A stretch of DNA of 50,709 nucleotides from Escherichia phage vojen. The position numbers and the translations under genes are program-made. Below are positions 1,135 through 48,050 of this stretch, piece by piece. The stretch is taken from sequence record NC_049824.1. One strand, written 5' to 3'. Under the pieces are notes generated by a model. It did no database searches, was not told the DNA's origin, and was given only the letters and a program-made list of their open reading frames with translations. How positions within the stretch are numbered: position 1 is the stretch's first letter; the number at the start of each line of letters is the position of its first letter.

Positions 1135-1154
1135 GTTTTAACAAAAAGTGCTAT
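1135..1154 (-). promoter_or_regulatory. Conserved 20-bp element (minus-strand reading ATAGCACTTTTTGTTAAAAC)
   Basis: Exact match to the dispersed motif; lies upstream of minus-strand gene 799..1071; TACATT -10-like hexamer about 18 bp further on. Confidence 0.55.
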
Positions 1155-1440
1155 TTATCAACTGGCGATTATTCCATCTATTCCATTAATCAGGAATAAC
1201 AGGAATAACTCATTCGAGATCACATGGATTGTGAGATCTTGAGTTTGATCAATTTTAATCAGGTGATTAACTTTTTGTGTGGAGGGGATAGAGAAACTCG
1301 GTCCTCTTGCATCCTTTCCGGCAATCCTGGAGGGCGCAACTGTTGTCTTCTGTTATCGCTGTTATGCGTGTTATTCCGGCGTGGAATCGCATAACAAAAA
1401 ATAACAAGAAAAATCCATATAACATACTAAAAAATAAGGA

Positions 1441-1580
1441 TTATTTATTTATATGTATCTATAAATTATTATCTGTTATGTGTGTTATGTGGTTATATTG
1501 ATACCTGGTGTGTTTTTGGTGGTTGTGTGTGGTTGTGTATTGGTTGGTGTGTATATATGTGGGCGGGGGCGTATCCGCGC
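1441..1580. repeat. GT-rich low-complexity element, copy A
   Basis: AT-rich tract followed by (TG)n-like runs (ggttgtgtgtggttgtgt...) and a GC clamp; similar in order and sequence to 30921-31045. Confidence 0.5.
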
Positions 1581-1690
1581 ATTTTTAGATAACACGCAAA
1601 AACAACATTGATTTATAAGAAAAAAAACGAGAATCTTGTTATTTTCTGAAAAGATAACATCGGAAAACCGCCAGTAACAATAAAAAACAG

Positions 1691-1720
1691 TTGACACACC
1701 AGGTGACGGTAAATGATAAT
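1691..1720 (+). promoter_or_regulatory. Sigma70-like promoter for the plus-strand early block
   Basis: TTGACA (1691-1696), 18-bp spacer, GATAAT (1715-1720), about 30 bp upstream of the first early gene. Confidence 0.55.
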
Positions 1721-8429: not shown

Positions 8430-8741
8430 ATGATTTATATTCACACTTACGGGATCGGGAAATTTGCCAACAAGCAGATCCGAAATATTTACGACACGCT
8501 AGACGATGCGAAAGCACAGCAACGCGTTTTGGGTGGTGTAATTCAGGCTTTTGAGTTAGTGGAAGACATAGAGCGCCGAGAGCATTTGAAAGAGATTATT
8601 GTTGATGAAATTTCATCACTAATCGACGACATGACAAATCACGGGCCTGGTTCTCCGTGGGAAGAAGCCGGATCGACGGAGTGGGATTGCGCTAAAGTTG
8701 CAACGCTTAACAACTTTCGTGAGTTGCTCGACGATTTTTAA
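8430..8741 (+). CDS. acidic hypothetical protein (103 aa)
   Basis: ORF with GGAGA RBS; D/E-rich composition. Confidence 0.55.
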   Translation: MIYIHTYGIGKFANKQIRNIYDTLDDAKAQQRVLGGVIQAFELVEDIERREHLKEIIVDEISSLIDDMTNHGPGSPWEEAGSTEWDCAKVATLNNFRELLDDF

Positions 8742-9170: not shown

Positions 9171-9305
9171 TTGACAACGATTTCCTGATTGGTTAGCATA
9201 TTCAGCGTTTACATAAGAGCGGCATTAGTGCCGAACGGGTGGCGCGGTTGCCACGCAACAACGGCGATATGCAGGTTTTTACCGTAAGACGTATCGCCTT
9301 TTTTT
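9171..9305 (+). ncRNA. Candidate small RNA unit (promoter-like hexamers, structured ~100 nt, terminator)
   Basis: TTGACA, 17-bp spacer, TAGCAT; no ORF; local stems (GTGGC...GCCAC); GGCGATA...TATCGCC hairpin followed by TTTTTTT. Confidence 0.3.
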
Positions 9306-26043: not shown

Positions 26044-29000
26044 ATGGCTGAAAATATGATAACGGGAAGTAAGGGCGGATCATCAAAACCTTATGTTCCG
26101 AAAGAGATGGAAGATAACCTGATCTCAATCAACAAAATCAAAATCCTTCTTGCCGTTTCCGATGGTGAGTGCGATCCAGATTTTACACTTCGCGATCTGT
26201 ATCTTGATGATGTTCCGGTAATTGCAGACGACGGAACTATTAACTACCAGGGTGTGAAAGCTGAATTTCGACCTGGAACGCAGACGCAAGATTACATCCA
26301 GGGGTTTACTGACACATCAAGCGAAGTGACGCTGGCGCGTGACATTACGACGACAAATCCTTATGTAATTTCCGTAACCAACAAAACATTATCGGCCATC
26401 AGAATCAAAATGCTAATGCCAACAGGCATTAAGCAAGAGGACAACGGCGATCTTGTCGGCGTTAAGGTTACTTATGCTGTTGATATGGCTGTTGACGGAG
26501 ACTCTTACAAAGAAGTATTGCGAGACACTATCGAAGGTAAAACGCGGTCAGGTTACGACAGGAGCCGAAGGATTGACCTTCCGGAATTTAATGATCGCGT
26601 ATTACTTAGGGTTAGAAGGGTTACGGCAGACAGCGCATCTTCTCGTGTTACTGATCTGATTAAGCTACAAAGTTACGCTGAGGTTATTGATGCAAAATTC
26701 CGTTATCCTCTGACTGGTCTTGTATACGTTGAATTTGACAGTGAGTTGTTCCCTAACCAGATCCCTAACATTTCAATCAAGAAGAAATGGAAGTTGATTA
26801 ATGTTCCGAGCAATTACGATCCGGTAATGCGAGAGTATCACGGTTCATGGGACGGTACGTTCAAGAAAGCGTGGTCGAACAATCCGGCTTGGGTACTTTA
26901 TGACATTATCACAAACCAGCGATACGGATTAGATCAGAGAGAACTTGGTGTACAGGTTGACAAATGGAGTCTTTACGAAGCTGCGCAATACTGCGATCAG
27001 AAAGTGCCTGACGGAAAAGGCGGTACAGAGCCGCGTTATCTATGCGACGTTGTGATTCAAAGCCAGATTGAGGCTTATCAGCTTATTCGTGATATTTGCT
27101 CAATCTTCCGAGGCATGAGCTTTTGGAATGGCGAGAGCTTGTCAATCGTCATTGATAAGCCGCGCGATCCGTCGTACATCTTCACCAATGACAACGTTGT
27201 TGATGGTGATTTTCAGTACACAACAGCAAGCGAAAAGAGCATGTACACGCAGTGCAACGTGACGTTCGACGACGAACAAAACATGTATCAACAGGACGTA
27301 GAGGGCGTATTCGACACCGAGGCAGCATTGCGCTTTGGATACAATCCTACAAGCATAACCGCGATCGGATGTACACGCAGGAGTGAGGCTAATCGGCGCG
27401 GTCGATGGATACTAAAAACCAACTTGCGCAGCACTACGGTAAACTTTGCTACTGGACTGGAAGGCATGATCCCATCAATAGGTGATGTGATTGCTATTGC
27501 TGACAATTTTCACAGCAGTAACCTTAAATTAAACCTATCAGGGCGCGTGATGGAAGTTTCCGGCTTGCAGGTGTTCGCTCCGTTTAAGATTGACGCGCGA
27601 CCAGGTGATTTCATTATCATCAACAAGCCGGACGGAAAGCCAGTTAAGCGCACAATCTCAAAAGTAAGCGGTGACGGAAAAACTATTGAACTAAACATTG
27701 GGTTTGGGTTTGAAGTTAAACCTGACACGGTTTTTGCAATCGACCGCACTGATATTGCATTGCAGCAATACGTTGTAACGAGTATCGGCAAAGGTGATGA
27801 TGATGATGAGTTTACATACTCCATCACGGCTGTTGAATATGATCCTAACAAATACGACGAGATTGATTACGGAGTAAACATTGACGACAGACCAACTTCA
27901 ATTGTCCAGCCTGACACAATGGCAGCGCCTGAAAATGTGCAAATATCCTCATACTCGCGAATTGTCCAGGGTGCAAGCGTTGAAACAATGGTTGTGTCGT
28001 GGGATAAAGTACCTTACGCATCGCTGTATGAAATGCAATGGCGAAAAGGTGATGGCAACTGGCTGAATACACCACAGACCGCAAACAAAGAAATTGAGGT
28101 TGAAGGTATTTATTCAGGAAACTACCAAGTAAGGGTCAGATCTGTTTCTGCTTCCGGTTCCACGTCGCCGTGGTCAAGAATTGTGACAGCATCACTGACT
28201 GGTAAGGTGGGAGAGCCAGGCGCGCCAGTTAACTTAACTGCATCCGACAATGAGGTTTTTGGCATTCGTGTAAAATGGGGCATGCCTGAAGGGAGTGGAG
28301 ACACTGCATACATTGAGCTTCATCAGTCGCCAGATGGAACAGCGGAAAACTCAAGCCTATTAACGCTGATCCCATATCCACAATATGAATACTGGCACGG
28401 GACGCTTCCGGCTGGTCATGTTGTATGGTATAGAATCCGAAGTGTTGACAGAATCGGCAACGTTTCCGGCTGGACTGATTTTGTTAGAGGCATGGCTTCA
28501 GATGATGTTGAGGCTGTTTTAGGAGATATTCTTGATAAGATTTTTGATACCGAAGCAGGAAAGGATCTGAAAGAGAACGCCATTGATAGCGCAAACAAAA
28601 TCAAGGATCAGGCACAAAGCATCATTCAAAACGCATTGGCGAATGATACAGACGTTAGGATTATGAGGAAGGAGAACGGAAAACGCAAAGCCGAGTTTAG
28701 ACAATCAATCCAATTGATCGCAAGTGAAACTGAAGCGCGCGTTACCGCAATGACGCAACTTAAGGCTGAATTTGACGAGGAAATAACTAGCGAAGTAACG
28801 AGACTCGATCAGGCAATTGCAACAGAATCGGAAACGCGAGCAACAGCCATTGAGGAATTGAAATCACAGATTGGTGATGATATTCAGGGGCAATTAACGC
28901 GGGTTGAGGAAGCGATTTCAAACGAAACAGAGGCGCGCGTTTCGGCTGATACAGCACTAACAGCGAAGTTTGGAGATGTTGAATCGGCGCTTACTGAAAA

Positions 29001-30465: not shown

Positions 30466-30492
30466 GGGCTTTCGCCCCTTTATTTTTATTTA
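30466..30492. terminator. Bidirectional intrinsic terminator
   Basis: GGGGC-TTTC-GCCCC hairpin flanked by A-run upstream and T-run downstream, between convergent genes. Confidence 0.8.
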
Positions 30493-30717
30493 CAGACTGC
30501 AATCAGCGTTTTTAAAGTTGTCAATGTTTACCCACTGAAAATTAAACGGATAGCCAGCCTTAACAAGAGTGCGGTCGCCAACTCGTTTTACTCCGAAAAT
30601 AGCAACTGAATACTGCATTCCGCTATTTTCATAAATAGCCGTGCATTCACGTTTAGGCATATTTGCGCACCCAGTCAGGGTTACGGTGGCAATCAAAGCG
30701 GCGATAAATTTTTTCAT
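30490..30717 (-). CDS. small outer-membrane lipoprotein, candidate superinfection-exclusion protein (Cor/Llp-like)
   Basis: Signal peptide with lipobox LTGC; mature ~58 aa with two Cys; GGAGA RBS; sits beside the host-range genes on the opposite strand. Confidence 0.5.
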   Translation of the reverse strand: MKKFIAALIATVTLTGCANMPKRECTAIYENSGMQYSVAIFGVKRVGDRTLVKAGYPFNFQWVNIDNFKNADCSL

Positions 30718-30771
30718 CTTGGTGTCTCCTTAGTTGTTGTTGGTTGCAACTATACACGATCTTGCGGTGTG

Positions 30772-30791
30772 CGTTTAGCAAAAAGTGCTAT
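30772..30791 (-). promoter_or_regulatory. Conserved element, variant (minus-strand reading ATAGCACTTTTTGCTAAACG)
   Basis: Variant motif upstream of the lipoprotein gene with TATAGT at a ~17-bp gap. Confidence 0.5.
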
Positions 30792-30920
30792 TCTTGTTCT
30801 TTTGTTATTCGGTGTTCTTAAATCTGCGGAGGCTTAAATTTAGCTCAAAATGTGAGCAACAATAGAGCGCTATACATACAGATAAATATATATACATACA
30901 TACAAATCAATAAGTTAGTA

Positions 30921-31045
30921 GTATATATATTTATATTTGTTCTTTATTGTTATCTATGTTTTGTGTGATTTTGTGTGTCTGGTGTTTTTTATGTGATTAT
31001 GTATGTGTCAGTGGTTGTGTGTGTCTATATATCTATATCCGGCGC
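30921..31045. repeat. GT-rich low-complexity element, copy B
   Basis: AT-rich tract, then ttgtgtgattttgtgtgtctggtgtttttt...gtggttgtgtgtgtc, then CCGGCGC clamp; parallels 1441-1580. Confidence 0.5.
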
Positions 31046-31161
31046 AAATGTAGGAACAAGAGAACAAAAAGACAACGCGGATATTTATCAATAACTTACA
31101 TGTAAGTTTTGTTATCTAGGTTGGTGAGAACGTTGTTAGAACAGAAAAAACAAAATAACTA

Positions 31162-31189
31162 TTGACTAAACGCATCAAATAGCTACAAT
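31162..31189 (+). promoter_or_regulatory. Sigma70-like promoter for the recombination operon
   Basis: TTGACT (31162-31167), 16-bp spacer, TACAAT (31184-31189), ~30 bp upstream of the exonuclease gene. Confidence 0.5.
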
Positions 31190-31218
31190 GCAGACATACC
31201 AACCAATGAGGGCAAATC

Positions 31219-32280
31219 ATGAATAAGTTTATGGCGTACACCAGCGAAGAAATGAGCAATGAGCTTTATCACGATCCAGAAGCGTGGACGGCTGATTATG
31301 TTAGCGGCTCAAGCCTGGCAGAGATTTACAGCACATGCCCGGCAGCGTGGAAGTTCAAGCCGCGTGACGATAAGAGCAAGGCGCTAGTTTTCGGTACGCA
31401 GTCGCATACCAACTTTGAAAGCAAGGAGCTTTTCGAAAAAACATATCGCCGTGCGCCATCGCCAGAAGACTTTAAGGATCTGATAACTAGTCAAACTGCG
31501 CTTGCCGCAAAACTGAAATCATTTGGCCTGAAAGGTACAACCGGAAAGACTTATCCAGACCTTATCAAAATGTTGGTTGACTGCGGAGAAGACCTTAACG
31601 TCATGTGGTTAATCGACATGATCGCAGAAAGTCAGGCCAGGGCAGATGGGGTTCAGTTAATCGAAGCTAAAGATTACGATGCGTGCGTGGCAATGCGCCA
31701 GGTTCTGGAATCAATACCGGAACATAACGCATGTATGAATAGCAAGACGGCACAACGTGAATTATCGTTGTTCGGTGAAATTAACGGCGTAAAAGTCAAA
31801 GTGCGATGCGATCACGTTGACGTAACAAAGAACGTCACCGCAACGCTGATTGATGGTTACGATGAAAAAGGTCAGCCGATTTGCCGCGATATTATTTATC
31901 CAGAGGCCATTGTGATCACAGACTACAAAACTACAATGAGCGCGAATCCGGCTGAGTTTATGCGCCTGGCTTACAATCACGGCTATTATTTGAAAATGGC
32001 GTTGCAATGTGATTTATTCAGAAAAGCGTATCCAGAAGAAAAGCGACCTATAGTTGTGCGACTGTTAGCGCAAGAGAAGAAAGAGCCTTATTTGCCGTTG
32101 GCTTTCCGCATGAATAGCGAGCAATTGAAGATCGGGCGCATTCAGTACATGAGCGTAATTAACCAGTTTGCCATGTGCCAGCAACATGACGTTTGGCCTT
32201 CGTATTCAAACGGCGAGCCGGAGGTTTGCCTTGATACTCCTGATTGGGTGCGACGCCAGTTTAAGCAATATCTTATTTAA
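31219..32280 (+). CDS. putative recombination exonuclease (PD-(D/E)xK family)
   Basis: Candidate catalytic segments CDHVD and ITDYKT; directly upstream of Erf and SSB. Confidence 0.55.
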   Translation: MNKFMAYTSEEMSNELYHDPEAWTADYVSGSSLAEIYSTCPAAWKFKPRDDKSKALVFGTQSHTNFESKELFEKTYRRAPSPEDFKDLITSQTALAAKLKSFGLKGTTGKTYPDLIKMLVDCGEDLNVMWLIDMIAESQARADGVQLIEAKDYDACVAMRQVLESIPEHNACMNSKTAQRELSLFGEINGVKVKVRCDHVDVTKNVTATLIDGYDEKGQPICRDIIYPEAIVITDYKTTMSANPAEFMRLAYNHGYYLKMALQCDLFRKAYPEEKRPIVVRLLAQEKKEPYLPLAFRMNSEQLKIGRIQYMSVINQFAMCQQHDVWPSYSNGEPEVCLDTPDWVRRQFKQYLI

Positions 32281-37968: not shown

Positions 37969-38901
37969 TTAGAGAAGTGATTCAGGCTTGTAAACCTTCC
38001 TCTCTATCCCTTGCCTGTAATTATCATGAATCGGCATCATAATTTCAAGTCCTCTTTCCTCAGCAGCAATGATCGCGTCACGGTCTGTACTCTTACAGAC
38101 AACTCGCATTCTTCTGTTGCCTTTATACCTGTAAGCTACAATCTCAATGTTAGTTGCATCAAAGCAGGCCCAAACCTCTTGACCAGTTGCAAGGTGAATA
38201 TGTTGCGCATCAATCCAGTCAACGCAAAGATAGATCGTCTTATCTGTGCTTCCTGTTCTCACAATCGACCCGCGCGTGTAGTCCTTTGCGAGAAAAGACT
38301 TATTACCTTCTTCATCAATGAAAAGCACATTGCACATTTCATCATCAATTTCATCTGAATGTACCAGGTAACATGGGAGCGCGTGAATGTATCGACCATC
38401 TTTAACGCCGCATTCATAATAACCATCTTCAGGCGGATATATCCCTTCATATGTACTTAACGGGGTGCGATCAAATTTTAGTGTTTTCGACATAACTCGC
38501 TCGCAGCATTCATGGCTTGCCTGCTTCCCAAACGAATAACCAGAATCACGAGATACTCGCTTATTTGCCTTGATCCTATAGTCCTGCGGAACTTTTCCAA
38601 GAAAGCGGCCCAAAATATTGATCACTTCGCTGTAAGGTTCTCCGGTTAGCTTCATGATCCAACCAATTCCAGTATCGTTGCCGCACACGTTGCAGATAGC
38701 GCCGCCATCGCCTTTTTTATCGCCAAGTTTATCCGTCCATCTGAAGCGATCCTTTCCGCCGCAGTGGGGGCAAGATTGATGCTTGCCGTTAAAAACTTCA
38801 TTTGGAAGACCGCAAATACTTTGTAGCGCCTCACGCCACAATCCTTGCATATATGGGAGAACATCTTCTTTTTGATAAACCATAAAGTTTTCGTTATTCA
38901 T
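37969..38901 (-). CDS. DNA primase (zinc-binding domain type)
   Basis: [12 protein letters not shown]...CNVCG zinc-finger arrangement; start moved to ATG with GAGGTG RBS. Confidence 0.55.
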
Positions 38902-38956
38902 ATACACCTCAAACAAAAAAGCCTGACAGATGATAACATCATGCCAGGCATTGTTT

Positions 38957-39430
38957 TTAGCAATTAGTGCTTTCAGGTTTATACAGGAATCCGCCAGGTT
39001 CATAATCTGACATTCTTACCACTCGCAACATTTCACGCTTATCACATCTCTTTGTGAGCGGTTTTCCATTGGAATCAAATCGCAGATCTGGACGGCAGAA
39101 TGAAGCGCGATAGCCTTGACAGCCATACTTTTTGTAATCGTTATGCACCTTTTGAGCGCCAGCGGCTGAAATCATACCGCGAACGCGCCACTGATTTACA
39201 GTTTGCTGGCTAACGTTAAGACGCTTTGCCATTGCTGACACGCTGCCGTAATACTCAATAAGAATGTCAAGCCGTGCTTTTAGTCCGGCGCGCACTTCAT
39301 CTTTTAAAACATAGTATCCTGTAGGGCGCTTGCGCTTTTTCTTATCTTTACCCCGTCGAGTTCCGTTATTGCCATTGATTGTGCGTTTGTCAATCTTACC
39401 AGTTGATACTGCGATTCGCTGTTCTTTCAT
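38957..39430 (-). CDS. putative DNA-binding regulator (basic N-terminus, HTH-like segment)
   Basis: KDKKKRKRP basic stretch; LNVSQQTVNQWR HTH-like segment; GGAGA RBS; start abuts a conserved element in the divergent region. Confidence 0.5.
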   Translation of the reverse strand: MKEQRIAVSTGKIDKRTINGNNGTRRGKDKKKRKRPTGYYVLKDEVRAGLKARLDILIEYYGSVSAMAKRLNVSQQTVNQWRVRGMISAAGAQKVHNDYKKYGCQGYRASFCRPDLRFDSNGKPLTKRCDKREMLRVVRMSDYEPGGFLYKPESTNC

Positions 39431-39444
39431 TATTCATTCTCCAA

Positions 39445-39464
39445 TAGCATTTTTTGTTAAACGA
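39445..39464 (+). promoter_or_regulatory. Conserved element, variant ATAGCATTTTTTGTTAAACG
   Basis: In the divergent region between the HTH gene and helicase; TATTAT at a ~16-bp gap. Confidence 0.5.
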
Positions 39465-39519
39465 TGATTTAATGATTGTGTATTATACACGCCAAATGGC
39501 ATTACTCAAAGGTTTTAGA

Positions 39520-42044: not shown

Positions 42045-42746
42045 ATGAGTAAAGAAACTGAAGTGACATTTGAACAAATAGAAAGAGAAACATTCATTGG
42101 CAATGCTCTTGCTACTGGAGGCCATTACCAGGCTGTTAAACCAAATCAATATTATAAAGTCACTGGCAACCGCTATAACGGCAGCAATACGCCGGACGTT
42201 GTGCGCGATTTGTGGTCTACGCCGTATGAGCTTGTCGCATGGATGGAAAGCGAATACGGTGATTATGACATCGACGCGGCGGCAAGCAAAGAAAATGCTG
42301 TATGTGAAAAATTCTACAGCAAGGAAACAAATTGTTTAAAGCGTTGGTGGGGTAGTAATAAGCATATATGGCTGAATCCACCGTACAGCAATATTACGCC
42401 ATTTGTTAAGAAGGCGATTGAGCAAATGGAGCACGGAAACCAGATCGACATGCTTTTACCTTGCGACACGTCAACAGGATGGTTTTATGAGGCGCAACAG
42501 CACGCAGCGGAAATAATCTGGATCACTGGAGAAGTTTACCAGGAGGACGGAACAGAATATTCCCGCACCGGACGCCTGGCGTTCACTTCAGCGCTTACAG
42601 GTAAACCAGTGCAGGGTAACAATAAAGGAAGCGTTATTTTCATCATGCGCGAACTTAAAGAAGGTGAGCAGCAGAAAACGCGATACGTTAAAATCAGCGA
42701 CATTTGCCCTTCGGTGGCAGACCGTCGCGCACGGAAACGGAGCTAA
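42045..42746 (+). CDS. dam: DNA N6-adenine methyltransferase (phage Dam-like)
   Basis: NPPY catalytic motif (LNPPYS) in a 233-aa protein. Confidence 0.7.
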   Translation: MSKETEVTFEQIERETFIGNALATGGHYQAVKPNQYYKVTGNRYNGSNTPDVVRDLWSTPYELVAWMESEYGDYDIDAAASKENAVCEKFYSKETNCLKRWWGSNKHIWLNPPYSNITPFVKKAIEQMEHGNQIDMLLPCDTSTGWFYEAQQHAAEIIWITGEVYQEDGTEYSRTGRLAFTSALTGKPVQGNNKGSVIFIMRELKEGEQQKTRYVKISDICPSVADRRARKRS

Positions 42747-46466: not shown

Positions 46467-48050
46467 TTACCCCAGCAATGTTGGATTTACGAAAACAACG
46501 CCATTAATCACACAAATATAATTTCTTTCCTCAAGCATCGGAAGCAGTTGCGTTTCCATGCGCTTCATTACGCCAGCCTGACCAACAAAAGGCTTAACTT
46601 TTCGTGCAGCCTCATATATGGCGCGCACATTCAAGATCCCCTTGTTAGCCTTACCGTGTCGAGTGATAATCTCGATTAGTTTGCCCATTTCAGCATCATC
46701 ACCAGCATAGCCAGAAGCGTTGGCGGCGCTAATGTATGTTTTGCTCAACTCGCTAAACATCAGCAGTGCTTCTTGAACGGTTTCAACTTCAATCTCTTTC
46801 GACTTCTGAGGGTATCCACCAGGATTAAACCAGTTGCGGATAGTGTGCAAAACCGAAGCAATCCTGATCACCTGCTTATCCATTTTGCCAAGAGCACCGC
46901 GCAGCATTGTATGCGAATACTTTCCGCCATCAGCAAGGTGCGGCTCCATCTCCTGACGAGCCATGTTAAGAACTCGCATTGCTGATTTGCTGATCTTAAG
47001 CTGGATGTTTGATTCACTCATGATGTTATGGATCAGCTTAAAATATTGACTTTTCAGTTCTCCATCAACAGGCTCATAAGTAGAATCACCGTTATCATCA
47101 ACAAACTTTCGACGACCTAAAAATGATTCCTCACGCACAAGCAAATAACGCTCACTCACACCGATACCGCGCGATCCTGCATCCATGATGGCATTGATTG
47201 TTTCATCCTGGGCAATCACCGCCATACAGCCAAGAGCTTTAAAACTCATATTGTTGTCAGCGTTTGCACGAGCTATAGAAACATGACCATGATCCCATGC
47301 TTTCAGCACAAGTTCGCTGTTGGTTTTACGTTCGCCATTAGCATATGTCAGACCTAAAAGGCTGTTAATACTCGTTGCCTCGTCTGAAATCACAGCAAAG
47401 TTACCCTGGCGATTGTTGATTCTTGCAAGTCCTTCCGGCGTGGTGTCGGACACAGGGAAAACAATGTCACACATCTTTTCCAGTTTTTCTTCCAGATCTT
47501 CTTTCTCTTGGTATAGCGATTCCATATCAGCACCAGATCGCTCGCTCTTCATCTCTTTTGCAAGACCTGCCAACTTTGCCTGAATCTTTTTCCGCTCCTT
47601 CTTTCGCTGATCATTAATTCTTTCCACTTCAGCAACCATAGGAGCAAGAGCCAGGCTGTTAACGGCAGATTTACCAGTTGAAGGAGGCTGGCTTGTGACA
47701 ACATAAAGAGCGGTTGGCTGATCCGTTCCGTGATACTCAACCGTGAATCGTCCAAGCATTGCAGCAGACACACAGCCGATAAAATGCATATATGCCGATG
47801 ATTCAGGGAATTGAACAGATCGAGCAATGTTGCGCGCCAACTTGCCAACAACATCAACATCATTGCCAAGAGAAATTACAGGGTAGCGATCGTTTCCGTT
47901 ATTAACATCATTAACCTCACCCCAAAAGCTGGACGATTGACGGTATCCGTTAGCCTGAATGGACACGCGCACCGGAGACAATCCTTGTGCATCAGCTAAT
48001 TCGATAATTTGTTTTGGTGTTAGTTTATTGGTTTCAAACGAAAAATTCAT
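46467..48050 (-). CDS. P-loop ATPase, putative replicative helicase / primase-associated ATPase
   Basis: Walker A QPPSTGKSA; start moved to ATG with AAGGAG RBS. Confidence 0.45.
   Translation of the reverse strand: MNFSFETNKLTPKQIIELADAQGLSPVRVSIQANGYRQSSSFWGEVNDVNNGNDRYPVISLGNDVDVVGKLARNIARSVQFPESSAYMHFIGCVSAAMLGRFTVEYHGTDQPTALYVVTSQPPSTGKSAVNSLALAPMVAEVERINDQRKKERKKIQAKLAGLAKEMKSERSGADMESLYQEKEDLEEKLEKMCDIVFPVSDTTPEGLARINNRQGNFAVISDEATSINSLLGLTYANGERKTNSELVLKAWDHGHVSIARANADNNMSFKALGCMAVIAQDETINAIMDAGSRGIGVSERYLLVREESFLGRRKFVDDNGDSTYEPVDGELKSQYFKLIHNIMSESNIQLKISKSAMRVLNMARQEMEPHLADGGKYSHTMLRGALGKMDKQVIRIASVLHTIRNWFNPGGYPQKSKEIEVETVQEALLMFSELSKTYISAANASGYAGDDAEMGKLIEIITRHGKANKGILNVRAIYEAARKVKPFVGQAGVMKRMETQLLPMLEERNYICVINGVVFVNPTLLG

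Follow-up and report, generated by a model that had tools for sequence, protein, structure and literature searches.

What role does a T1-like phage's long noncoding stretch upstream of the recombination genes play, and is that role shared by a related stretch 29 kb away in the same genome? We addressed this question in Escherichia phage vojen (NC_049824.1), of which the whole 50,709-nt genome, hereafter the window, was analyzed. Judged by its sequence, this phage is a T1-like coliphage of the genus Hanrivervirus (Tempevirinae, Drexlerviridae). The stretch in question, region B, is flanked on its left by a cor-like lipoprotein gene (30490-30717, minus strand, with a lipoprotein signal) and on its right by the recE/exonuclease VIII-erf-ssb operon, in which recE starts at 31219. 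The neighbors of its counterpart, region A, are the leftward early operon on one side and, on the other, the first rightward early gene (1752). Both regions have megablast matches in Hanrivervirus coliphages such as SFP17, pSf-1, damhaus, and haarsle (90-96% identity). A first-pass annotation had described B as a diverged second copy of a GT-rich element, followed by a perfect palindrome and a promoter. The real unit is larger, extending over ~400 bp (about 30795-31190 in B and 1340-1720 in A), and is dominated by arrays of the TGTTAT/ATAACA type. We read region B as the second copy of a two-copy, ~400-bp cis module that may serve in replication, either as an origin by itself or as one of two sites that together form an origin resembling ori and crr of phage P4, a tentative reading to which we would give slightly less than an even chance. 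The module is the best candidate yet for the origin of T1-like phages, which, according to the papers on TLS and SU57, could not be found in this group (PMC11447400, PMC7718038).

Regions A and B Are Two Copies of One Element

The first-pass annotation had pointed to a parallel order of parts in 30921-31045 and 1441-1580, namely an AT-rich tract, TG-rich runs, a TATATAT block, and a GC clamp, and all of these are indeed present, in that order, in both copies. The alignment that it had proposed, of 1380-1700 against 30800-31200, gives a local score of 70, which was reached by 0 of 500 shuffles in either of two controls: dinucleotide shuffles scored 22.6 ± 3.1 (maximum 36), and 25-bp block shuffles, in which local composition is kept, scored 29.4 ± 5.9 (maximum 51). 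By blastn, A 1407-1558 and B 30880-31030 are 69% identical over 157 bp. No third copy of the element was detected in the window by blastn or nhmmer, and a position weight matrix cluster scan, although circular, ranked only A and B on top.

The two copies also stand out by composition. When the G+T fraction was measured in 60-bp windows over the genome, the GT-rich tracts, previously singled out as unusual, were the two most skewed (0.92 at 1510 in A and 0.87 at 30963 in B, with the next window at 0.78). Genome-wide nearest-neighbour energies, computed for 100-bp segments, identify the AT-rich blocks of the two copies as the two least stable segments of the genome, at 30871-30970 in B (z score 5.19) and at 1398-1497 in A (z 4.97), the third-ranked segment of the window reaching only z 3.03. 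Moreover, 14 of the 60 genomic copies of TGTTAT/ATAACA fall inside the 747 bp of A and B taken together, a 16-fold enrichment; the shuffle maximum for any hexamer in this span was 8. A and B are, finally, the two longest stretches of the window free of open reading frames (ORFs).

The promoter claimed for the recombination operon, TTGACT-N16-TACAAT, is where it had been placed, and the distance of 100-150 bp between element and promoter fits as well, with 136 bp in A and 139 bp in B from the end of the GT tract to the -35 hexamer. The perfect 16-bp palindrome at 31093-31108, AACTTACATGTAAGTT, was likewise found. Perfect palindromes of this length number two in the window vs. 0.80 ± 0.87 in shuffles, which is not significant alone; the other one (8603-8618, TGATGAAATTTCATCA) lies in or beside a small early gene.

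Anatomy of the Module

To describe the parts of the module, we compared a family sample of 44 recE-upstream loci, 19 Tempevirinae sequences, and 13 Hanrivervirus sequences. The left border of B is formed by a leftward 21-nt repeat of the type described in TLS, ATAGCACTTTTTGCTAAAC (30771-30792, minus strand), which is invariant in the 13 Hanrivervirus sequences and has a -10-like TATAGT beside it (30749-30754, plus-strand numbering); together, these are presumed to be the promoter of the cor-like lipoprotein gene. Array 1 (30795-30818, plus strand) consists of three direct hexamers, TGTTCT at 30795, TGTTAT at 30803, and TGTTCT at 30813, spaced by 8 and 10 bp, and its TTTTGTT and TGTTC columns are invariant in the 19 Tempevirinae sequences. 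It is followed by GC box 1, TCTGCGGAGGCTTAAATTTAGC (30823-30844), the counterpart of GC box 2 described below, of which CTGCGGAG and TAAATTTAG are conserved. Inverted hexamers between GC box 1 and the AT-rich block are clear in A and weak in B. The AT-rich block of B contains a perfect 14-nt inverted repeat (30882-30895/30921-30934) around a first integration host factor (IHF)-consensus site, AATCAATAAGTTA (30905-30917).

Array 2 (30938-30962, plus strand) comprises TGTTCT at 30938, TGTTAT at 30948, and TGTTTT at 30957, with spacings of 10 and 9 bp. Next to it are the GT-skewed spacer (30963-31023, plus strand), which is the GT-rich element of the first-pass annotation, the TATATAT block (31024-31038), and, directly after the latter, GC box 2, CCGGCGCAAAT (31039-31049). 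The GGCG(C/T)AAA form of GC box 2 recurs over the Tempevirinae, and its kin are GCGCAT in T1 and CCGCGGAAA in Rtp. Array 3 (31053-31076, minus strand) is inverted, with GGAACA at 31053, AGAACA at 31061, and GACAAC at 31071. A second IHF-consensus site, TATCAATAACTTA (31086-31098), overlaps the palindrome. The promoter-proximal pair (31110-31160), which includes an imperfect inverted repeat (I5), is composed of a forward TGTTAT at 31110 and an inverted AGAACAGAAAAAACAAAATAAC at 31138-31159, the latter being also A-rich, UP-element-like, and abutting the -35 hexamer. The module ends with the σ70-type promoter of recE-erf-ssb on the plus strand (TTGACT 31162-31167, a 16-nt spacer, TACAAT 31184-31189), whose hexamers match the consensus at 10 of 12 positions and which is conserved in 44/44 family loci. 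The IHF consensus, WATCAANNNNTTR, has seven matches in the window vs. 4.45 ± 1.78 expected, two of which are the sites in B (30905 and 31086). No match was found in copy A of the window phage, and one is present in copy A of phage KarlJaspers.

Copy A (1340-1720, plus strand) shows the same order of parts. Three forward TGTTAT hexamers (1352, 1361, and 1370) and a GC box, TCCGGCGTGG, are followed by three inverted ATAACA hexamers (1392, 1401, and 1419), the AT-rich block, two more forward TGTTAT hexamers (1474 and 1483), the GT tract (around 1505-1555), and a TATATAT block with a GC clamp containing CCGCGCATTT (1552-1582). Inverted arrays (around 1589-1606), a forward/inverted pair (1637; 1654-1689), and a plus-strand promoter with TTGACA, an 18-nt spacer, and GATAAT (1691-1720) complete the copy. 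As a leftward 21-nt repeat borders A on its left too (about 1136-1156, minus strand), A and B are promoter-free islands between outward-facing promoters. We found no promoter reading into either element.

The Module Is Conserved and Its Two Copies Evolve Together

The search of relatives proposed by the first-pass annotation was extended to five whole genomes, those of the window phage, T1, TLS, Rtp, and KarlJaspers, and A and B are kept in all of them. Loss of the element from close relatives that retain the promoters was not seen: copy A of KarlJaspers is diverged, with no BLAST match to that of the window phage, but has the same architecture, including the GT tract and an IHF-type site. The module occurs in all four Drexlerviridae subfamilies sampled, with both copies present in genomes of Tempevirinae, Tunavirinae, and Braunvirinae and copy B also in others of the 44 loci. 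In each of the four genomes in which stability was compared, i.e., the window phage, T1 (Tunavirinae), TLS (Tempevirinae), and Rtp (Braunvirinae), the two lowest stabilities belong to the segments at A and B (z 4.3-5.9), and in 43 of the 44 family loci, the centre of the stability minimum falls 270-345 bp upstream of recE. The sole exception is Shigella phage 2019SD1, in which region B is in two pieces over 392 bp; this record is labelled UNVERIFIED_ASMBLY, and its recE annotation is extended upstream.

Conservation is distributed unevenly along the module, as measured by nucleotide diversity (pi) in the 13 Hanrivervirus sequences, with the third codon positions of recE (pi 0.125) as a neutral proxy. 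The promoter-proximal array is the most conserved segment (0.017), followed by the TATATAT block (0.029), the promoter (0.038), Array 3 (0.044), the AT-rich block (0.049), Array 2 (0.064), GC box 2 (0.071), the palindrome (0.072), the GT tract (0.099), and the spacer at 31119-31137 (0.222). Conservation is 2- to 7-fold higher in the flanking arrays, the AT-rich block, and the TATATA/GC box, and the GT tract drifts at a near-neutral rate. GT composition is retained in the Tempevirinae, and the strong skew is confined to them.

These values shift the emphasis away from the two features that the first-pass annotation had put forward. With a pi of 0.099 vs. 0.125 at recE third positions and a strong skew in the Tempevirinae only, the GT tract does not merit the weight it was given. 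The palindrome fares no better, since its perfect 16-bp form is present only in the window phage and SFP17 and its count is not above chance. Within the genus, TATTTATCAAT and the left half and centre of the palindrome, CTTACATGT, are invariant and the right arm varies, the latter showing no conservation outside the genus. The left half overlaps the IHF-consensus site, and Tempevirinae-wide only this half, AACTTAC, persists, within a ATCAnnnnCTTA motif. What stands of the earlier description is the pair of related copies upstream of strong rightward promoters, which point to a shared cis function.

The repeat units differ between lineages, being TGTTAT/TGTTCT in the window phage, TGTTCAC/GTGAACA in TLS-like phages, GTAACA and GATTAACAC in T1, and GTAAC in Rtp. 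In a 5 × 5 matrix of A vs. B, A resembles the B of the same genome significantly in all five cases (z 6.7-43.7), and in T1 and Rtp it is far closer to its own B than to the B of other clades. The extreme case is Rtp, in which A and B score 141 (z 44), most cross-clade pairs scoring 25-36. The AT-rich cores of the Rtp copies (A 200-300, B 28090-28170) are nearly identical, which suggests recent gene conversion between them. Because the unit is lineage specific and A tracks its own B in phages that share E. coli as a host, a shared phage-encoded binder, gene conversion between the copies, or both would be at work. The same pattern argues against a host factor acting on the arrays and against a decaying duplication. 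The way in which A and B change together within a genome is also a clean example, from a virulent phage, of cis elements undergoing concerted evolution.

The duplication remnant that had been offered as the alternative is hence rejected, both copies being retained and A resembling its own B in all five genomes. More broadly, we consider it very improbable that the element has no function of its own, be it a duplication in decay, a stretch coding for a small protein, or one specifying a structured RNA. While A and B are only 69% identical, the GT tract drifts almost neutrally, and small ORFs are annotated within B in some GenBank records, both copies are found with the same order of parts in three subfamilies for which whole genomes were examined, and several segments lie well below the synonymous rate. 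The +1 and -2 indels of close relatives break the frame of the 52-aa ORF at 30947-31105, which we dropped as a small gene. No Rfam match was obtained at the gathering threshold over the whole window, and folding of the GT tract with its flanks, on both strands of A and B, gave z scores of 0.35, -0.13, 1.11, and -1.75, none beyond shuffles; nor does a promoter read into the element. Among the small ORFs annotated within B elsewhere are SFP17_027 (record 1305-1460) and Fulano1 gp26 (record 1303-1428). One such B-internal ORF is named "putative exodeoxyribonuclease VIII"; given the frameshifting indels in relatives, these appear to be spurious gene calls.

The lineage-specific units bear equally on a passive promoter architecture, in which curved AT-rich DNA and UP-like A tracts would boost the two early promoters, perhaps with host nucleoid proteins and with no phage binder. 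An A-rich tract does abut the -35 hexamer, runs of T and A are phased at 8-10 bp, IHF-consensus sites are present, and UP-like enhancers were raised by the TLS authors for other repeats of the T1 family (PMC11447400). However, units that differ between lineages despite the common host E. coli, with A tracking its own B, point to phage-encoded specificity, and conservation reaches 400 bp upstream, past the range of UP elements or curvature. We therefore regard this explanation as improbable.

The Module Resembles Initiator-Helicase Origins

The anatomy of the module is typical of origins used by initiator helicases, with converging short repeats that flank the two least stable segments of the genome. 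Two of the general features of iteron origins are found as well, i.e., a cluster of short repeats, oriented and spaced by 8-10 bp, adjacent to low-stability DNA of the unwinding type. Protein binding, melting, and a replication function are what we infer from this anatomy.

A close parallel in design is satellite phage P4, in which the alpha primase-helicase binds two cis replication regions, ori and crr. According to the annotation of the P4 record, both regions carry one and the same repeat of 8 bp, TGTTCACC, in arrays that converge and have a spacing of 9-11 bp. As in P4, two separated noncoding elements share short converging repeats beside AT-rich DNA, with spacings of 8-11 bp; TLS-type relatives use (G)TGTTCAC/GTGAACA, which resembles the repeat of ori and crr, and the primase domain of P4 alpha has a homologue in the primase of the phage. 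The differences are substantial: among TGTTCACC, the TGTTAT/TGTTCT of the window phage, and the unit of the TLS-type relatives, only an AACA core is common to all, and the window copies have no DNA homology to ori or crr. The window helicase is of the DUF3987/MCM-like type, whereas alpha has an SF3 helicase and a C-terminal DNA-binding domain without a homologue here. Furthermore, the window copies lie 29 kb apart, each is coupled to an early promoter, and their role as an origin is putative. The element may thus work like ori and crr and like other initiator-helicase origins; the resemblance is one of design, and we do not assign it to the P4 family.

Other origins share parts of this plan. 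The core origins of simian virus 40 (SV40)/polyoma and papillomaviruses and the ori of staphylococcal pathogenicity islands (SaPIs) also combine inverted penta- or hexanucleotide repeats, an easily melted AT tract, a palindrome, and a region of divergent promoters, and their initiators are AAA+ hexameric helicases. The helicase families and the hosts are different and there is no sequence relationship; the window element is, in addition, much longer and present twice per genome. The origins of pSC101, R6K (gamma), and lambda likewise have repeat arrays, an IHF-consensus site, and an adjacent strand-asymmetric unwinding element. They differ in that the window element has no DnaA boxes, is built from units of 6-9 bp rather than iterons of 17-22 bp, and is not in or beside an initiator gene. 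An exact DnaA box, TTATNCACA, was not found in the window, one site with a single mismatch lying within A or B. Lambda-type iterons had been looked for in TLS, and none were reported (PMC11447400).

The window phage encodes its own replication proteins. The most attractive candidate for a trans-acting factor would be a DUF3987 helicase of 527 aa (46470-48050, minus strand). A PDB sequence search with it gave no match, and a fold search was informative instead: its AlphaFold model (pLDDT 89) has MCM2-7 and archaeal MCM as best PDB fold matches. A winged helix is predicted at its C terminus (residues about 450-527), which is more divergent than the AAA+ core. For a homologous DUF3987 protein, helicase activity in partnership with the primase of a mobile element has been shown (PMC11724360). 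In the window phage, the primase (37969-39003, minus strand) is homologous to residues 26-262 of P4 alpha (E 1.6e-11). The start of its gene is translationally overlapped by that of a Cro/P22-like helix-turn-helix (HTH) protein (38957-39430, minus strand), conserved across the family and a second candidate factor. No homologue of the SF3 helicase or DNA-binding domain of alpha was found among the window proteins, and DUF3987 aligned with alpha by hhalign at a probability of 0.3%. The phage also encodes SSB, RecE, and Erf. This self-contained replication set of the mobile-element type (helicase, primase, SSB, RecE, and Erf) needs a cognate origin.

A possible mechanism can be outlined. A phage-encoded, lineage-specific protein would occupy the converging TGTTAT/TGTTCT (GnnAACA) arrays, the best candidate being the MCM-like DUF3987 helicase through its C-terminal winged helix, and the alternative the Cro-like HTH protein. 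IHF would bend the DNA at its two consensus sites, and the leftward 21-nt-repeat promoter and the rightward σ70 promoter would feed negative supercoiling into the promoter-free island between them. The AT-rich block would then melt, the GT/CA-skewed spacer would yield structure-free single strands, and the helicase and the P4-alpha-like primase would begin synthesis. In its most specific form, with A and B together making up a P4-like two-site origin served by the DUF3987 (SF6) helicase via its lineage-variable winged helix, fired by divergent early transcription, and with its two sites kept matched by recombination, this proposal is one that we rate as doubtful.

Several points weigh against an origin. 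A large regulatory region for two early promoters predicts every one of the sequence features equally. The most conserved array (pi 0.017) abuts the -35 hexamer and is UP-element-like, and the GT tract, which triggered the finding, is poorly conserved. Enrichment of the exact hexamer is not clearly significant in T1, TLS, and Rtp (P = 0.16, 0.37, and 0.04, respectively). In 40 local alignments of A and B with P4 ori and crr, the best z score was 3.7 and most were <2, and neither the helicase nor the DNA-binding domain of P4 alpha has a homologue in the window. The C-terminal winged helices of MCM proteins are not known for sequence-specific binding. Phage noncoding DNA tends towards AT-richness in any case, and T1 replication is strongly recombination dependent, so that a defined origin might matter little.

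If the module does prove to be an origin recognized by the DUF3987 helicase, it would be the first defined for the Drexlerviridae and would reveal the first mode of origin recognition for DUF3987 helicases. T1 is a classical Delbrück phage, and a module with coordinates, a parts list, and candidate binders makes the location of its origin directly testable. Our literature search for T1 origin mapping, transcriptomes of T1-like phages, and these repeats yielded nothing beyond the TLS and SU57 genome papers. A genome-reduction study (PMC9825161) was set aside as T1-like evidence, as it concerns a Skatevirus.

The Arrays May Instead Control Early Transcription

The position of the two copies suggests another role, in which the arrays would be operators or enhancers through which a phage regulator, such as the Cro-like HTH protein, acts on the promoters of A and B (P_A and P_B). 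The regulator would activate these promoters or shut them off, IHF would loop the distal arrays to RNA polymerase, and the AT-rich curved DNA would be an upstream activating sequence. Only three σ70-like promoters were reported in TLS (PMC11447400), their counterparts in the window being A for P01, B for P51 (recE), and the HTH-primase operon for P57, and each element lies directly upstream of one of these few consensus promoters. Conservation peaks in the array beside the -35 hexamer (pi 0.017), the distal and proximal arrays have an IHF-consensus site between them, an HTH "transcriptional regulator" is conserved in the family, and co-evolution of A and B would fit a shared regulator equally well.

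Other observations are harder to accommodate. The third σ70-type promoter of the window phage, that of the HTH-primase operon (TTGAGT, 16-nt spacer, TATAAT; ~39485-39513, minus strand), has no arrays. No hexamer arrays were found there, near 39500, or at a σ70-like site at 9171. This third promoter stands back to back with a 21-nt-repeat promoter (39440-39490, plus strand) of an SNF2-like helicase. At 110-400 bp upstream of the -35 hexamer, the module's core is distant for a bacterial operator. Operators need neither a fixed order of AT-rich block, skewed spacer, TATATA, and GC box nor genome-wide stability minima, yet the latter are seen in four phages. In addition, the HTH protein and the 21-nt repeat are conserved across the family, whereas the arrays vary by lineage, and the HTH protein therefore pairs more naturally with the 21-nt repeat. 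On balance, we find transcriptional control by the arrays possible but rather unlikely, and origin and promoter-control roles could coexist. Were it correct, A and B would be the control region of two of about three host-type early promoters, which is relevant to the engineering of T1-like therapeutic phages. Readings of the motifs as CRP, ArcA, or LexA-like sites were dropped by eye, their spacing or half-sites being unfitting.

Packaging Signals Adjoin Copy A

The arrays could also be sites for the terminase small subunit in the pac region, B being a secondary pac. The T1 record, which has an annotated terminal repeat_region (1-2800), begins 100-130 bp to the left of copy A, near which the first or last position of several other records also falls. 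Hexamer arrays on either side of an IHF-type site are, moreover, reminiscent of P1 pac, although the window hexamers contain no GATC. The TLS record opens ~100 bp left of its A, at an AGATTT motif assigned to pac (PMC11447400). It is nevertheless a separate GATC-rich stretch (window equivalent 1215-1270), and not the arrays, that contains the mapped ends. B, at a distance of 29 kb, has one GATC site and nothing comparable to the mapped ends nearby; its position follows recE and not the terminase genes, and it is unrelated to packaging positions. The single submolar pac fragment of TLS (PMC11447400) also speaks against a second pac site. Packaging appears to adjoin A but not to be the function shared by A and B, and we attach very little probability to this explanation.

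Within 1160-1300 of the window, a GATC cluster (1218, 1235, and 1247) lies at the position homologous to the starts of the T1 and TLS records (pac or terminal-repeat start). Similar GATC clusters occur at those record starts, and the window phage encodes a Dam methylase (42045-42746), which hints at methylation-controlled pac cleavage as in P1.

A Family of 21-nt Repeats Borders the Module

The repeat at the left borders of A and B belongs to a larger set, the TLS-type 21-nt repeat ATAGCACnnnTTGnTAAAA having 11 copies in the window: seven on the plus strand (2478, 2941, 3972, 6491, 7839, 41967, and 42987) and four on the minus strand (48797, 30791, 20125, and 1154). A -10-like cATAAT is found ~22 nt past each of them, and the intervening spacer is often a GC-rich hairpin. 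This arrangement suggests a class of phage-specific promoters that have an activator site upstream, for which the Cro-like HTH protein is a plausible partner. Its function is listed as an open question in the TLS paper (PMC11447400).

The arrays of the module are related to the TLS/T1 repeat, consensus aaATAGCACnnnTTGnTAAAA, in that they share TTGTTA with it, occur in the same family, and have a leftward copy of it at the border of both A and B. They differ from it in lacking the ATAGCAC half, in being clustered in both orientations instead of standing singly upstream of genes, and in varying by lineage where the 21-nt repeat is family conserved. Consistently, the arrays gave no match to aaATAGCACnnnTTGnTAAAA, the genuine copies in these regions being those at the left borders (30791 and 1154, both minus strand).

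Region B was also recognized in 18 UNVERIFIED GenBank records (MG0656xx) named "Campylobacter phage," in which it is 93-94% identical to that of the window coliphage; the Campylobacter host label of these records looks doubtful.

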